Source: a bacterium (GTDB lineage Bacteria; Patescibacteriota; Minisyncoccia; Phycocordibacterales; UBA10002). Taken from it: a stretch of 41,745 bases of DNA. The position numbers and the translations under genes are program-made. Shown piece after piece: positions 4,359-36,916 of the stretch. Position 1 is the stretch's first letter. Every line of letters begins with the position of its first letter. Where the stretch lies: NCBI GenBank assembly GCA_030697445.1, contig JAUYPY010000030.1, positions 1-41,745 on the forward strand, written 5' to 3'. Under the pieces are notes generated by a model. The model was not told the DNA's origin and did no database searches. It saw only the letters and a list, made by a program, of their open reading frames with translations.

Positions 4359-5479
4359 AAATTTGATTTCAAGCGCCATACACGAAGTACAGATTGATTT
4401 AAACGCTCCTCCGAAATGCGACCAGAAATAACTGCCCATTCAACGGCTTTAATAATCGGCTCATGCAGTTTAGTGGTATAAGTACTAATAATCATATCGG
4501 CACCCGCTTCAATGGCCTGCACAGCGGCTTCTTCAGTTGATATGTTATTTATTCCTTTTGTAGAGGCCATTTCAATGTCGTCGGTGATAATCACCCCATT
4601 ATATCCCCACTCGTTACGGAGTATGCCTGTGAGAAATGTTCGCGAACGTGTTGCCGGAACATCATCAATACTTCCATAAACAATATGTGCAGTCATCAAA
4701 GGCACTTCTGGTAATCTTTCAAGAGCGAAATGAAACGGCTCCAAGCTTTTTGAAATAGAAATTACTGTTTCGTAGGCATTTTTTTGATGCGGATCAACCC
4801 TAATCGCTCCGTACCCAGGAAAATGCTTAAAGACAGGAATCACGCCTGCCGCTTGATATCCGCGTGCCATAGCGACACCAAAATCCGCGGTAATGTTTGT
4901 GGTGGTCGCAAAAGTCCGGTCATATAAATAAGCCAGTTTATCCGGTACATAATCAAGTACAGGCGCAAAGTTCATATTAATACCTAGATTCTTAAGTTCC
5001 GTTCCTCTTTTTTGCGCCACACGAAATGCTTCTTGTTTATTTTTAATATCTTTCTCTGCGGTTAGTTCAGACAAAAAAGGGAAACGAACAACGGTACCCC
5101 CCTCTTGATCGACTGCAATAAAGAGAGACGGCACTCCGGCTTCAGACGCAAGTTTTTGCAATGACGCAGAAAGATTTCTGCTCTGTTCTGCGTTTTCTAT
5201 ATTATGTCTTAAAAGATTTACTCCGCCAATACCATACCTTGTTATCAATTGCTTGATATGTTCATCGGGGACTTTTGTCGCAAAACCAAAAATCATAAGT
5301 TGCCCAATTCGTCTTTCCAAAGAAAGATTTCTGATTTTCTCAAGCAGGACTTTTTCCTTGTCAATCGTCGGAGAAGCATCGATGTCGTCTTTTTGAAATG
5401 GAACTACATATCCATGAAATAAAAAAATGGGTGAAAGAACGATACCGAGCACCAAAAGTATTTTCAGATTTGTATTCAT
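4355..5479 (-). CDS. nagZ: GH3 beta-N-acetylhexosaminidase with N-terminal signal anchor
   Basis: 374 aa. GH3 N-domain motifs VDQEGGTVVRF, KHFPGYG and ITDDIEMAS. N-terminal TM segment LKILLVLGIVLSPIFLF. Confidence 0.8.
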   Translation of the reverse strand: MNTNLKILLVLGIVLSPIFLFHGYVVPFQKDDIDASPTIDKEKVLLEKIRNLSLERRIGQLMIFGFATKVPDEHIKQLITRYGIGGVNLLRHNIENAEQSRNLSASLQKLASEAGVPSLFIAVDQEGGTVVRFPFLSELTAEKDIKNKQEAFRVAQKRGTELKNLGINMNFAPVLDYVPDKLAYLYDRTFATTTNITADFGVAMARGYQAAGVIPVFKHFPGYGAIRVDPHQKNAYETVISISKSLEPFHFALERLPEVPLMTAHIVYGSIDDVPATRSRTFLTGILRNEWGYNGVIITDDIEMASTKGINNISTEEAAVQAIEAGADMIISTYTTKLHEPIIKAVEWAVISGRISEERLNQSVLRVWRLKSNL

Positions 5480-10130: not shown

Positions 10131-11650
<1,520 letters not shown>

Positions 11651-32577: not shown

Positions 32578-33651
32578 TCATTTTTGCAGTGCTTCAATTC
32601 CCGGAAGCGTACCGGTAGCCAAAAATTCAAGCATCGCGCCGCCGCCCGTTGAGACAAACGAAAACTTGTCGTGGATGCCGAGCCGAGCAATCGCGGCGAG
32701 TGTGTCGCCGCCTCCGACAATCGTTTCTGCGCCGCTTTCGGCAAGCGCGCGCGCCACTCCTTCCGTGCCTGCAGTAAAACCGCGCTCGTATTCTCCAAGT
32801 GGCCCGTTCCACACTATCAACTTCGCCTCGCGCGCGCGCGCGCGAATGTCGGCAACGGTTCTCTCTCCCGCGTCCACAATTCTATCCTCGCTTCGCACGG
32901 CATCTTGTGGCGCACATAATTTTGAGTTATGCAACAAAACGCTCGGAAAAGCCGTCGCGGAAACAGATGAACTACCCACCGGCTCGCCACGCGCCTTAAG
33001 TACATCATTTGCAAGCACCCCTCCGATATATACCGTATCGGCAATAGAAAGAAATTTCTCAAGAAGCGGTAATTTTGTTTCCGTCTTTGCGCCTCCGAGT
33101 ATAAACAAAAACGGGTGCGCTGGAGAAAATGCTTTTGAGAGATTCTGCACTTCTTCTTCAAAAAGAAATCCTGCGTAATGGGGCAGAAACTTCGGTACGC
33201 CGACCACCGACGCATACGCGCGATGCGAGGCGGAAAATGCTTCGTTTACATACACATCCGCAAGCGATGCAAGTTTTTTTGCAAATGCTTCTTCGTTTTC
33301 TTTTTCGCCTTTTAATTGGCGGATGTTCTCCAATAAAACAAACGAGCCATTCTCCGTTTTTTCAAGCGCGGTTTTTGTTTCTTTAGTTGTTTTTGCAAAA
33401 ATGACTGGATACTGCTTCTTCAATTCTTCATACACCGGAACGAGCGAGTCATTTTCATTGGTTCTGTGCGATACAAGAAGCGTGCGTGCGCCGTTTTCTG
33501 CCAAAAAATCAAGTGTTTTTTTGCTGCGTGTAATGCGGTAGTCATCAACCATCTTTCCACCCTGTATCGGCACATTCAAATCAATTGCCAAAAATACGCG
33601 TTTCCCGCGTAGGTCTACGCACTCCCGAATCGTCTTAAAATTAAGCGTCAT
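32578..33651 (-). CDS. pgk: phosphoglycerate kinase
   Basis: From the ATG at 33651: MTLNFKTIRECVDLRGKRVFLAIDLNVP... The C-terminus reads STGGGAMLEFL. The first 88 codons of the track ORF overlap tpiA and are rejected. Confidence 0.85.
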   Translation of the reverse strand: MTLNFKTIRECVDLRGKRVFLAIDLNVPIQGGKMVDDYRITRSKKTLDFLAENGARTLLVSHRTNENDSLVPVYEELKKQYPVIFAKTTKETKTALEKTENGSFVLLENIRQLKGEKENEEAFAKKLASLADVYVNEAFSASHRAYASVVGVPKFLPHYAGFLFEEEVQNLSKAFSPAHPFLFILGGAKTETKLPLLEKFLSIADTVYIGGVLANDVLKARGEPVGSSSVSATAFPSVLLHNSKLCAPQDAVRSEDRIVDAGERTVADIRARAREAKLIVWNGPLGEYERGFTAGTEGVARALAESGAETIVGGGDTLAAIARLGIHDKFSFVSTGGGAMLEFLATGTLPGIEALQK

Positions 33652-34405
33652 TGGCAATTTGTATAATCCACGCGAACGCCTCGGCATCCAAGCTTTCGTG
33701 CCCCACGAGAAATCCGGAAATGTCACCGTCGCGCAAAAGCGCTCCGGCATTTTCCGGACCCACGCTCCCGCCGTACAAAATGGGAACCGCAACGCCTTCC
33801 TCACCAAACATATCAGCCATAACTTTGCGGATAAAGATTGTGGTCTCGCGCACGATCGCGGGCGACGCGGCATCGCGCCAGTTCTTACTGATCGCCCACA
33901 AGGGTTCATACGCAATCACGATATCCGATAAAAATCGGCGCTGGACTTTTGAAAACGACGCCTTCATCTGCTCGCGCAACACGCCAAAAAAATCACCATT
34001 TTCATCACGCGCGCGTTCTCCTATGCACACAAGCGCTGACAAGCCCTCACGCACAACCGCTTGCGCCTTTCGCGACACCATATCATCTGTTTCCCATCGC
34101 GCGCGACGCTCCGAGTGCCCGACGATTGAAAGCGTTACGCCAATGTCTTTCAGCATTTCCGGAGACACTTCACCGGTGTGCGGCCCACCGTTTCGCCAAA
34201 ACGCGTCTTGGGAGCCAAGCGTAATAACGCCATTTGAAAGACGCGAAAAAAGCGGCACAAACGGGAACGGCGGACAAATCGTGACGGAGACCCGCCGCGC
34301 TTGGGTTGCGGCGCGGCGGGTTGCGAGAAAAAGCGCACGCGCCTCCGCCGCCGTCCCCGGGTTCATCTTCCAATTCGCGATGATCAACTTTTTACCATTT
34401 TTCAT
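33641..34405 (-). CDS. tpiA: triosephosphate isomerase
   Basis: 254 aa. IIANWKMN, VGHSERR and YEPLWAI motifs. Confidence 0.9.
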   Translation of the reverse strand: MKNGKKLIIANWKMNPGTAAEARALFLATRRAATQARRVSVTICPPFPFVPLFSRLSNGVITLGSQDAFWRNGGPHTGEVSPEMLKDIGVTLSIVGHSERRARWETDDMVSRKAQAVVREGLSALVCIGERARDENGDFFGVLREQMKASFSKVQRRFLSDIVIAYEPLWAISKNWRDAASPAIVRETTIFIRKVMADMFGEEGVAVPILYGGSVGPENAGALLRDGDISGFLVGHESLDAEAFAWIIQIANDA

Positions 34406-35408
34406 TTCGTCTAGTATACAACATTTCTTTTATTTTAGATGCTGTACGGAATCCTTTACAGTGCTCCAATAATCCAAGATATGACGGTAGATTTATACGG
34501 TTCACCCGCTTCAGCATCCTTTTTCTGGTTCGCGTCCGCAGTACCCGATAATGCGGAAGAGAAACATATCCAAGAAAATCAGTTCCTTGTCGCAGTTTCC
34601 GTAGGGAAACTTTGCGCGGGTGGAGTTCCAGCAAGAGTTTGTCGCGCAAAAACATCTGAATGCGTGCAATCAACCACATCAATGCTGCACGGCTTTTATC
34701 CAAAATCACAAAATCATCGCAGTAACGAATGTAGTATGGTGCCTTGAGCGTGTGCTTTACAAACTGGTCCAGTACATTTAGATAGATGTTGGCGAAAATC
34801 TGACTGGTTACATTGCCGAGCGGCAGACCTTTGTTCGGTGCGACCTCAAAAGAAGAGATGATGCGGTGAATAAGAGTGAGGAGATTTTGGTCGGTGATTC
34901 TGTGTGAAATGCTAGAAAAAAGAATGCGGTGGTCAATGGAATCAAAAAACTTCCTGATGTCGCACTTCAAGACAAATGCGGAATTGGTATAGTTTGTAGA
35001 TACTTTTCGCGCAAAGACCTCAAATTGTTTTACGCCTGCGTGTGTGCCCTTACGTTCTCTAGAAGCATATGAATCGTGTATGAATGTATTATCAAATATC
35101 TGATACAATTCTTGATATACAACTTGAAATAGAACGCGGTCTCGAACGCTCGGGACATGAATGATGCGTGGTTTTGGGTCGGCAATGGGCTGGCGTTCAT
35201 AGGGGTCGTTTGTCCACACGCCAAAAGCAAGCTGTTCGTGGAGAGAAAAGAGGTTTTCTTCCAAATACAACTCAAACCTTGCAAATTCACTATCGGTTCG
35301 CTTTCCTTTGGAAAACCTCCGCCATGCGCGAAGTAGATTTTCCGGAGAAATTAGAGCATAAAAATCACTATTATGACGCCCCCCCCCCGACCGTACTCCA
35401 TCCGTCAT
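34392..35408 (-). CDS. DGR-type reverse transcriptase
   Basis: 338 aa. LGNVTSQIFANIYL (the I/LGxxxSQ signature of DGR RTs), YIRYCDDFVIL (YxDD), and an N-terminal ENLLRAWRRFSKGKR motif. Confidence 0.9.
   Translation of the reverse strand: MTDGVRSGGGRHNSDFYALISPENLLRAWRRFSKGKRTDSEFARFELYLEENLFSLHEQLAFGVWTNDPYERQPIADPKPRIIHVPSVRDRVLFQVVYQELYQIFDNTFIHDSYASRERKGTHAGVKQFEVFARKVSTNYTNSAFVLKCDIRKFFDSIDHRILFSSISHRITDQNLLTLIHRIISSFEVAPNKGLPLGNVTSQIFANIYLNVLDQFVKHTLKAPYYIRYCDDFVILDKSRAALMWLIARIQMFLRDKLLLELHPRKVSLRKLRQGTDFLGYVSLPHYRVLRTRTRKRMLKRVNRINLPSYLGLLEHCKGFRTASKIKEMLYTRRNEKW
35379..35388 (-). repeat. G10 homopolymer (C10 on plus strand) in RT codons 7-10
   Basis: gacgCCCCCCCCCCgacc, encoding S-G-G-G-R. 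Confidence 0.95.
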
Positions 35409-35409
35409 T

Positions 35410-35742
35410 TTGAAGATTCGTCTGTTGCATAAAGAGATTTACGATATTGGGAAGAAATTGCCGAAGGGGGATAAATTGGGGATTCACACGACTGTTGAAA
35501 AATACACTCTAGAACTACTCGCCACAGCCATCGCGGCATCCCTTACTTCAGGAAGAGAGAAAATCCCCTTACTGAAAAAAGCGCGCATTCAAGTTCACCA
35601 AGTAATTCACCTCATCCGAACAGAATATGAACTTGGTATTGTTATGGAGAAAATATACCTGCGCCTGTCCGCACAACTAGTTGAAATTGCAAAGATGTTG
35701 AATGGTTGGATAACCTACGAAACGAACAAAGAGTCGCGATGA
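35410..35742 (+). CDS. avd: Avd-like four-helix-bundle protein (23S rRNA IVS protein family), TTG start
   Basis: 110 aa. KEIYDIGKKLPKGDKLGIHTTVEKYTLELLATAIAAS...EIAKMLNGWI matches the four-helix-bundle/Avd pattern. Opposite strand to RT, TR and VR. Confidence 0.7.
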   Translation: MKIRLLHKEIYDIGKKLPKGDKLGIHTTVEKYTLELLATAIAASLTSGREKIPLLKKARIQVHQVIHLIRTEYELGIVMEKIYLRLSAQLVEIAKMLNGWITYETNKESR

Positions 35743-35750: not shown

Positions 35751-35761
35751 GCGAGAAATTT

Positions 35762-35875
35762 CTGAACGGGCGCCGTTATTCGGGTTGCAGTTGTCGGCAT
35801 AGTTCCAGTTGAGGTAGACCTTGCGATTGTCCGGATTCCAGTTGCCGTTCGCAACCTTGTCGTCGCGGAGACGGT
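35762..35875 (-). repeat. DGR template repeat (TR), 114 nt
   Basis: Aligns without gaps to 36142-36255. In the VR frame it reads RLRDDKVANGNWNPDNRKVYLNWNYADNCNPNNGARS, which is rich in AAC/Asn codons. Confidence 0.9.
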
Positions 35876-36050
35876 ACCTCGTTATGCCGCGCTTCGTCCG
35901 TATCACCGAGAACCTTTTTCAAGATTCTCTGTGTTTCCTCGTGGTAGAACGAGCGTAGTATAAAGACGTGGCAAGCAATTTCTTTGTGTGGCAAACTGTT
36001 ATCGCGCCAGAGGCGGACCAATTTCACAGCCAGTTTTAGTATAACAAAAG

Positions 36051-36089
36051 CCCCGACTTTGTCATCCGTAAGCGGAGACAAAATCGGGG
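36051..36089 (-). terminator. terminator hairpin after the DGR target gene
   Basis: Arms ccccgactttgtc and gacaaaatcgggg with one wobble. On the minus strand the hairpin is followed by CTTTTGTTAT. Confidence 0.6.
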
Positions 36090-36115: not shown

Positions 36116-36916
36116 TTAAGACCTAAGGGGAACCTTCTTTGCTGAACGGGCGCCGTAAGACGGGTTGCAGCTGCCGGCATAGCTCCAGTAGAGGTAGACC
36201 TTGCGATAGCCCGGATGCCAGTAGCCGTACGCAACCTCGCCGCCGCGGAGACGGTCTTCTGGGAACCAAGTCCATGTCTCTGGATCTAGATGCTCTCCGG
36301 TAACGACATGATGCATGGTGTCTGCATCGCACCAGCCGAAGAGACCGAGCCAGAGTTTGTTCTGGATTTTGACGAGTTGGTCTGGACTTTTGGCGTAGTC
36401 GCTGAGGGTGTCGTCGTCTGGTTTGACAGAACGATTGATGAGGTAGAGTTCGGGCTCTTTCTGGCCTTTGCTGTTTGTGTACTTCATCACATCTGTCTCT
36501 TCGTATGGCTTGTTTTCTCCCATTTTCAGTTTCCATTCAATCGCATGGCGATTGGTGGCGCCTGCAGGACGGAAGGCGGGCATGAGGGTGGTGCTTGCGA
36601 GTTCTTCGTCCGTAAGGGAGAAGAGGTCTCGTAGTATCACTAGTTCTCCTATGAAGAACCTGTGGAGTTCCTCTCGCGCTTTAAGCCAGTCGGCGAGGGT
36701 GTGACCGGTGGAGCGGAGGGTGGGGATGTGCGGGGATTCCTCAATCTGCGTCTTCTCCTGTTTAGGAACCCAGCATGGTTCCTGTCTGTTGAACTTATTG
36801 AGTTCAGTGAGTACCTCTTGACCCTTTTCTCCGTTTAATTTCACGAAGAGGTCAGAAATCGGTCCCTGCAAGAGTACACGGAGCGATTCGTTGTTGCCGA
36901 GCATGCCGGTTTGCAT
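36116..36916 (-). CDS. DGR variable (target) protein, VR at C-terminus; no signal peptide seen
   Basis: 266 aa. The C-terminus reads RLRGGEVAYGYWHPGYRKVYLYWSYAGSCNPSYGARSAKKVPLRS. GAAAGGA lies 8 nt upstream of the ATG. Confidence 0.85.
   Translation of the reverse strand: MQTGMLGNNESLRVLLQGPISDLFVKLNGEKGQEVLTELNKFNRQEPCWVPKQEKTQIEESPHIPTLRSTGHTLADWLKAREELHRFFIGELVILRDLFSLTDEELASTTLMPAFRPAGATNRHAIEWKLKMGENKPYEETDVMKYTNSKGQKEPELYLINRSVKPDDDTLSDYAKSPDQLVKIQNKLWLGLFGWCDADTMHHVVTGEHLDPETWTWFPEDRLRGGEVAYGYWHPGYRKVYLYWSYAGSCNPSYGARSAKKVPLRS
36142..36255 (-). repeat. DGR variable repeat (VR), 114 nt
   Basis: 15 mismatches to the TR, all at TR positions that are A on the minus strand (plus-strand T changed to a, c or g). 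None of the 82 non-A positions differs. Confidence 0.9.

Follow-up and report, generated by a model that had tools for sequence, protein, structure and literature searches.

Among the closest described relatives of the locus considered here are the diversity-generating retroelements (DGRs), such as that of Bordetella phage BPP-1, and the contingency loci of bacteria, in which a simple repeat lies inside an open reading frame (ORF) near its 5' end and a change in the number of repeat units shifts the frame. In the Bordetella phage DGR that has been studied, the accessory protein Avd is required for cDNA synthesis. Little has been established about how DGR activity is regulated, and mutagenesis of a functional target protein should carry a cost if it goes unchecked. 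To our knowledge, no simple repeat or switch of the contingency type has been described for BPP-1, and most of the contingency loci described so far are from host-adapted pathogens. No such repeat or switch is mentioned in the survey of DGRs by Wu et al. (PMC5758913), and no paper tying DGRs to homopolymers, simple repeats or phase variation was found in a literature search whose coverage did not extend to Paul et al. 2017, on the DGRs of the candidate phyla radiation (CPR). Here we consider a DGR on a contig of a patescibacterial genome (GenBank assembly GCA_030697445.1, contig JAUYPY010000030.1; the window, hereafter, is this whole contig of 41,745 nt), in which one homopolymer of ten bases is common to the overlapping 5' coding ends of two genes on opposite strands, avd and the gene for the reverse transcriptase (RT). 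From comparison of sequences, this tract is probably a hypermutable gate of the contingency type, turning avd, and hence mutagenic retrohoming, on and off by slipped-strand mispairing.

The tract lies at 35379..35388 of the window and reads C10 on the + strand, the strand of avd, and G10 on the - strand, the strand of the RT. As assembled, the RT ORF (34392..35408, - strand, 338 aa; Pfam RVT_1, E=8.4e-23) begins with an ATG at 35408, and its first codons read ATG ACG GAT GGA GTA CGG TCG GGG GGG GGG CGT, with G10 supplying the third base of Ser7 and the whole of Gly8-Gly10; the location of the run in the 5' end of the RT and its coding for Gly8-Gly10, both given in a preliminary description of this DNA, are thus confirmed. 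On the other strand the same bases fall in proline codons of avd, the body of which (35389..35742, + strand) is coding from the first codon after the tract (DRTPSVILKIRLLHKEIY...) and specifies a bAvd-like four-helix bundle. Its match to the Pfam family bAvd (PF22296; E=6e-8, 33.6 bits) is below the curated threshold of 40, and the same family is present in 119 of the 120 Avd homologues listed from a profile search of 5.8 billion proteins.

A tract of this length far exceeds chance expectation. The genome (518,130 nt in 51 contigs, 49% GC, 94% complete) contains 331 G/C runs of 5 bases, 48 of 6, 8 of 7, 2 of 8 and none of 9, each added base leaving about six-fold fewer runs, and only two runs of at least 9, the C10 at 35379-35388 and a C11 at 10773-10783 of contig C16. 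Both sit at the avd/RT junctions of the genome's two DGRs. There is no other G/C run of at least 8 in the window, and apart from the two DGR tracts the genome is almost free of G/C runs longer than 7.

The ORF list had placed the start of avd at a TTG at 35410, 21 nt past the end of the tract, and the preliminary description put the tract 22-31 nt upstream of the avd start, within the promoter or 5' untranslated region (UTR). The arithmetic is correct for that TTG; the start is probably another, since the TTG is not conserved and an ATG at 35373 is. Nor does the region behind the tract behave as a UTR, for it evolves as avd coding sequence. The seven codons directly after the tract, read on the avd strand in 15 clade members, conform to [D/E]-x-T-P-S-V-I, and the entropies at codon positions 1, 2 and 3 are 0.65, 0.40 and 1.42 in the post-tract codons compared with 0.74, 0.38 and 1.25 in the avd body. 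Between the paralogous avd genes of this genome 8 of the first 10 codons differ, with 8 synonymous and 0 non-synonymous differences. No conserved avd start was found 3' of the tract in the 15 clade members: the codon at 35410 is TTG only in the window, and elsewhere specifies His (8 loci), Leu as CTC (5) or Val (1), and a second TTG, at 35425, varies synonymously too. In the alignment both triplets are ordinary Leu codons and not conserved starts.

Upstream of the tract, by comparison, the motif CTATGA(C/T)G-Cn is conserved, which sets an ATG one or two codons 5' of the run. In the window this is the ATG at 35373..35375 (+ strand), 6 nt 5' of the tract and in frame with the avd body only when the run has 9 or 12 C. 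Among the 120 database homologues, 38 have an N-terminus of the form M-x(0-6)-PP... and are full-length at about 120 aa; another 66 have been called too short, beginning after the tract at an arbitrary internal codon; 11 carry a long upstream extension in another frame; and 5, in which the conserved KRDKLG motif was not found, are unclassified. In relatives without a repeat, avd opens with an ATG and about four codons, followed by helix 1. Because the post-tract codons evolve as avd coding sequence, no conserved start lies 3' of the tract, and proteins of the form M-x-PPP exist, we infer ATG 35373 to be the avd start and the tract to be avd codons 3-6 (Pro-Pro-Pro) and no part of a promoter or UTR. 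An Avd made from this ATG would be expected to contain the peptide MTPPPDRTPSVILK, or an N-terminally processed form of it.

A promoter scan around the avd/RT junction returned no site there. A -10-like box, TAAAAAT (35359..35365, + strand), ends 7 nt before ATG 35373 and is kept in clade members in the sequence alignment; as the same bases, read on the other strand, encode D-F-Y of the RT, the constraint on it is ambiguous, and this candidate box would be compatible with a near-leaderless avd mRNA. The 3' tail of the 16S rRNA (window 10131-10165, - strand), which reads ...GGAATCATTCAAGG / ...GCTGCTCGTGGAATCATTCAAGG, is without the anti-Shine-Dalgarno CCTCC, and initiation in this organism thus appears to be Shine-Dalgarno-independent and probably leaderless.

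The consequences of a change in tract length were simulated for n=8-12 in the window, with avd read from ATG 35373 and the RT from its upstream ATGs. The avd ORF is 12 aa long at n=8, full length at 122 aa at n=9, 13 aa at n=11, and full length again at 123 aa at n=12; at n=10, the assembled state, the ORF (35373..35432, + strand) encodes the 19 aa MTPPPRPYSIRHFEDSSVA and then stops. The RT ORF, on the other hand, is 335 aa at n=8 and 336 aa at n=11 (from ATG 35401), 345 aa at n=9 and 346 aa at n=12 (from ATG 35430), and 338 aa at n=10 (from ATG 35408). These three ATGs lie upstream of the tract in three different frames with no intervening stop, so the RT stays translatable at n=8-12. The ATG at 35399..35401 (- strand), in frame at n = 2 mod 3, begins MEYGRGGG..., and that at 35428..35430 (- strand), in frame at n = 0 mod 3, begins MQQTNLQNDGWSTVGGG... 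and is the complement of a conserved avd His codon. On these frames the assembled genotype is predicted to be RT-on and avd-off, and a single deletion would turn both on.

Conservation of the tract was assessed with RT homologues from 60 related genomes, from one-genome-per-species contigs and from JGI metagenome contigs. They yielded 178 unique junctions, each including 140 nt or more ahead of the RT N-terminus and all from metagenome-assembled genomes (MAGs) or metagenome contigs, in which poly-G was scored in a 120-nt window. Taxon-labelled junctions are mostly from Patescibacteria (Taylor-, Nomura-, Moran-, Nealson-, Uhr- and Kerfeldbacteria, and others), with the proviso that some MAG labels are clearly unreliable and that JGI contigs are unlabelled. 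Whether relatives carry the tract, as the preliminary description had asked, is answered by poly-G runs of 6-13 at 142 of the 178 junctions (80%) and by another simple repeat in the same place at 7, with no repeat at 29. The poly-G lengths are 6 (4 loci), 7 (11), 8 (16), 9 (43), 10 (43), 11 (17), 12 (6) and 13 (2), and in all 142 cases the run is of G on the RT strand. The seven replacements, (TTGG)7, (GA)9/11/12, (GT)13/14 and (CT)18, occupy the same position 5' of avd helix 1, each with an ATG 5' of it. Over the other 712,707 nt of the same loci just 7 G-runs and 2 C-runs of at least 7 occur, some of them being further avd junctions themselves. A repeat that is over-represented against the genomic background, fixed in position and varying in unit type and length, and that lies inside an ORF near the 5' end where unit changes shift the frame, is what is found at contingency loci based on simple sequence repeats (SSRs).

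In nearly every locus avd is on the opposite strand and directly abuts the RT. Since almost all of the 29 repeat-free loci share this head-to-head layout, the layout is ancestral and the repeat an optional addition. The tract travels with avd, as shown by one locus (L181) in which a G9 is at the avd 5' end despite an RT 264 nt away. In a relative without a junction tract, a G9 is found inside the RT body just before the GLPIGNLTSQ motif (L099:1560-1568), and is possibly an alternative, RT-borne switch. One Patescibacteria contig has two more G10 runs downstream of the RT (L118:3404-3413 and 5253-5262), the first with flanks resembling an avd 5' end, and may hold additional DGR cassettes.

Not only does the tract recur, its length varies on backgrounds that are otherwise identical or nearly so. 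The clearest case is a pair from independent sources, a Nealsonbacteria MAG from Rifle with G10 (L086) and a JGI contig with G9 (L162), whose alignment of 3994 nt has 0 mismatches and, in the tract, its one gap. The dinucleotide repeats behave likewise, with (GT)13 and (GT)14 in two loci (L083 and L151) that are 97.5% identical, and n is different in every one of the 5 pairs whose flanks share 80% identity or more. Such length polymorphism, here found in relatives, is a further mark of contingency loci. At another junction (L032, contig C19 of genome G007) a scaffold gap of ten N directly abuts a G12 tract, which suggests that assemblers break at the tract, as would be expected if reads disagree in its length.

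The genome's own second DGR (C16:9810-11130, locus L002) provides a comparison within one organism. Its RT is 73% identical to that of the window, its avd is likewise inverted, and its template repeat (TR) and variable repeat (VR) are a pair of 128 nt with 79% identity. The C11 is at the homologous junction, and the flanks of the C10 and C11 tracts align without a gap, the only length difference being 10 versus 11. In this second element avd is out of frame by two, needing +1 or -2, and its RT has a GTG start in frame. A relative of it (L203/L204) has C9 where the second DGR has C11, on flanks that are nearly identical near the tract and about 80% identical over the whole alignment. In L203 (1087-2282) the avd is in frame at C9 and the RT call, next to rplS, is only 211 aa; this cassette may be decaying.

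A search of the 94%-complete genome for the MutS (PF00488; MutS_V) and MutL (PF01119) families found neither. If mismatch repair is indeed missing, a G10 tract should be highly unstable, and its retention at exactly these two sites becomes more telling. No independent assembly of the window locus turned up when the RT, or any of three avd ORF versions, was used for an exact-protein look-up, and a variable-gap pattern scan of metagenome contigs gave no match. An exact look-up with the TpiA protein did return one Logan contig (SRR13727529; L122), which matches window 32895-34443 with 99.9% identity over 1549 nt and stops before the tract; its end falls within the 3' end of the RT, 38 nt ahead of tpiA.

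The mechanism that probably accounts for these observations would run as follows. Translation of avd would start at ATG 35373, read the tract as Pro-Pro-Pro and continue into DRTPSVILKIRLL... Slipped-strand mispairing during replication would add or remove one C/G pair, and a one-base change would bring the avd body into the reading frame of its only start codon or take it out again, such that C9 and C12 would give an Avd of 122-123 aa and C8, C10 and C11 peptides of 12-19 aa. The RT would remain translatable at all lengths by way of an ATG in each frame. Which cells of a population are capable of mutagenic retrohoming would then depend on tract length, in a manner both heritable and reversible. 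The scheme presumes frequent switching at the DNA level, use of ATG 35373, and a stop to retrohoming on loss of Avd. A conserved and length-variable repeat fits phase variation, and to that extent the proposal in the preliminary description of a switch for the DGR stands; the gene that is frameshifted, however, is avd and not the RT. Extended to relatives, and with slightly less confidence, we favor the view that DGRs in much of the Patescibacteria have a built-in second-order switch, a hypermutable repeat in the first codons of avd, maintained by selection in genomes that elsewhere steer clear of such tracts and seem to be without mismatch repair, that would toggle targeted hypermutation stochastically, with most cells keeping the current target variant and a minority diversifying it, and that some lineages would gate the antisense-overlapping RT as well.

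Several points weigh against a gate of this kind. ATG 35373 is not preceded by a Shine-Dalgarno sequence, and TTG 35410 and TTG 35425 could serve as starts from which some Avd with a shortened N-terminus is made. Only in the Bordetella phage system is Avd known to be needed, and to extend this to the present DGR is to argue by analogy. The length variation is seen in assemblies of relatives, and the difference between L086 and L162 could in principle be a homopolymer consensus error in one of the two assemblies. Finally, the assembled avd states are not enriched for the "on" state: in the 68 loci where an ATG is found no more than 15 nt from the tract, avd is in frame in 13, off by one surplus base in 37 and by two surplus bases in 18.

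This last distribution bears most directly on the explanation that ranks second, namely that the tract serves recoding. Here RNA polymerase would stutter on the C/G run, or the ribosome would make a +1 shift on CCC-C before CGA, and a fixed small fraction of Avd would come from a nominally out-of-frame gene, with the differences in DNA length a side effect. A CCC-C close to the initiation codon is known to favor +1 shifts, and RNA polymerase is known to slip on long homopolymers; the zero frame of the window reads CCC CGA, and the commonest state among relatives, one base too many in 37 of the 68 loci, is exactly what a +1 shift corrects. An "on" minority fits the view that "off" is the usual majority state, and it fits recoding as well. 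What sets recoding back is that a conserved frame offset between the upstream and downstream ORFs, as programmed frameshifting or slippage would need, was not found across the 68 loci: in the commonest spacer class (ATG+3 nt) 6 are on, 8 are at +1 and 6 are at +2, and the next class differs in order. What is kept among the loci is a length of about 9-10, not a frame. Moreover, dinucleotide and tetranucleotide repeats, unfit as a slippage site for tRNA-Pro, replace poly-C in some loci, ten C go far beyond the need of a +1 site, and between roughly a fifth and a third of loci and database proteins need no correction, being in frame as they stand (38 of the 115 classifiable database gene calls are "on"). 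We therefore regard recoding as unlikely, if the most serious competitor of a slipped-strand gate on avd.

The arrangement first proposed in the preliminary description, in which a frameshift about 10 codons into the RT toggles that gene and avd is altered by a change of spacing in its promoter or 5' UTR, is improbable. The tract is certainly inside the annotated RT ORF, and in 77 of the 142 poly-G loci there is no RT start 3' of the tract. In the L086 lineage the RT does appear switchable, G9 leaving it in frame with a TTG and G10 running it into a TGA, as would be the case in some relatives. In the window, however, a slip of one base does not knock out the RT, since an ATG without a stop is present upstream of the tract in all three frames and the ORF stays open, at 335-346 aa, for n=8-12. 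A more distant clade has its RT ATG about 13 nt 3' of the tract, which is therefore outside the RT, and the spacing hypothesis founders on the sequence between the tract and TTG 35410 being avd coding sequence. Across the 77 loci that have none 3' of the tract, a valid RT start is present in 55, 40 and 55 cases in the three frames, or in about two frames per locus on average, and the assembled frame is not enriched for RT start codons; the assembled states thus say little about selection for the RT frame.

Much the same doubt, or slightly more, attaches to the idea that the tract acts in cis as a nucleic-acid element and not through its mutability, be it as a ribosome-binding site rich in G that serves the RT, as a means of spacing two divergent promoters, or as a non-B DNA or RNA structure of which the retroelement makes use. 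Its strict polarity, with G on the RT strand in 142 of 142 loci, would be in keeping with such a role, as would the clade in which the tract lies about 13 nt before the RT ATG, and all of the substitute repeats can form unusual DNA structures too. The polarity is, however, explained as well by tolerance of Pro in avd and of Gly in the RT. A role of the G tract as the RT Shine-Dalgarno sequence was rejected for this genome, where the 16S tail without CCTCC leaves a G-rich ribosome-binding site no partner; (CT)18 and (GT)13 can stand in for poly-G, 29 loci, almost all with the same layout, do without a repeat, and no Rfam family matches.

That the true length is a fixed, in-frame C9 and the tenth base an assembly or polishing error is least likely of all, even if homopolymers of such length are error-prone and the ten-N gap of L032 abuts a G12, because most of some 140 independent assemblies, like most database gene calls, have lengths that are out of frame, the second DGR is off by two and not one, and a systematic +1 error would not yield a spread of 6-13. 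As for the presence of the tract, its conservation at the junction across relatives rules out an artefact.

The remainder of the element is that of a complete DGR, with the order on the - strand of target gene with VR, TR, inverted avd, and RT. A DGR-type RT, a TR/VR pair with adenine-only differences and an Avd are all present, and homologues of the RT by the hundred adjoin Avd genes and TR/VR pairs. The TR (35759..35875, - strand) and the VR (36139..36255, - strand) form a 117-nt repeat pair of 86% identity, and the aligned copies mismatch nowhere within the repeat but at adenines of the TR, read on the - strand. The VR is the 3' end of the target gene (36116..36916, - strand), which in the ORF list encodes 266 aa and in the Pfam search had no match. 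Between the target stop and the TR lies the sole good sigma-70-like site of the region, ATGACA-16-TATACT with an extended TG (36038..36065, - strand), found by consensus match only. It is a candidate promoter of a TR-containing RNA, and if it serves as such, the RNA would run antisense through avd towards the RT. At the other end of the element the RT stop and the start of tpiA overlap by 14 nt on the same strand (window 34392-34405), and from this overlap the RT appears to be co-transcribed with tpiA-pgk.

If a slipped-strand gate on avd does operate, it would be heritable, reversible and stochastic, a form of bet-hedging between keeping and diversifying a ligand-binding protein, and it would place a contingency locus in free-living or episymbiotic ultra-small bacteria. 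There is also a practical consequence for annotation. avd is routinely miscalled in these lineages, as the 66 truncated proteins among 120 database homologues attest, so that DGRs may be scored as being without an intact Avd; the true start and the state of the tract should be reported.

Set beside known systems, the locus has most in common with the contingency loci of Campylobacter jejuni, Neisseria, Haemophilus influenzae and Helicobacter. In both, a tract of about 8-13 G/C, or a dinucleotide or tetranucleotide repeat, is found a few codons past the start, near-identical strains differ in its length, each change shifts the frame, and such tracts are rare elsewhere in the genome. The (CCAA)n repeat in L035 resembles the tetranucleotide loci of Haemophilus, and the genome studied here is like those of Campylobacter and Helicobacter in that no mismatch-repair genes were found. 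The differences are that the gene gated here is the accessory subunit of a targeted hypermutation machine and not a surface or restriction-modification gene, that the tract is common to two antisense-overlapping ORFs, and that the hosts are uncultured Patescibacteria in which switching is deduced from sequence. Programmed slippage and +1 frameshifting, as in dnaX of Thermus, the transposases of IS elements and prfB, are similar in having a homopolymer at the junction of two frames, and the commonest state here would likewise need a correction of one base; unlike those cases, the frame offset is not conserved, other repeat types substitute for the homopolymer and many loci are in frame. With the DGR of Bordetella phage BPP-1 (mtd-avd-TR-brt) the element shares an RVT_1 RT, an Avd four-helix bundle, adenine-only differences between TR and VR, and a VR at the 3' end of the target gene, and it differs in the inversion of avd between TR and RT, in the head-to-head overlap with the RT, and in the simple repeat in the 5' coding end of avd. 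What sets the locus apart is the gene that would be gated, the single tract across two antisense-overlapping ORFs, and the host group, whereas the behavior itself matches that of known contingency loci.

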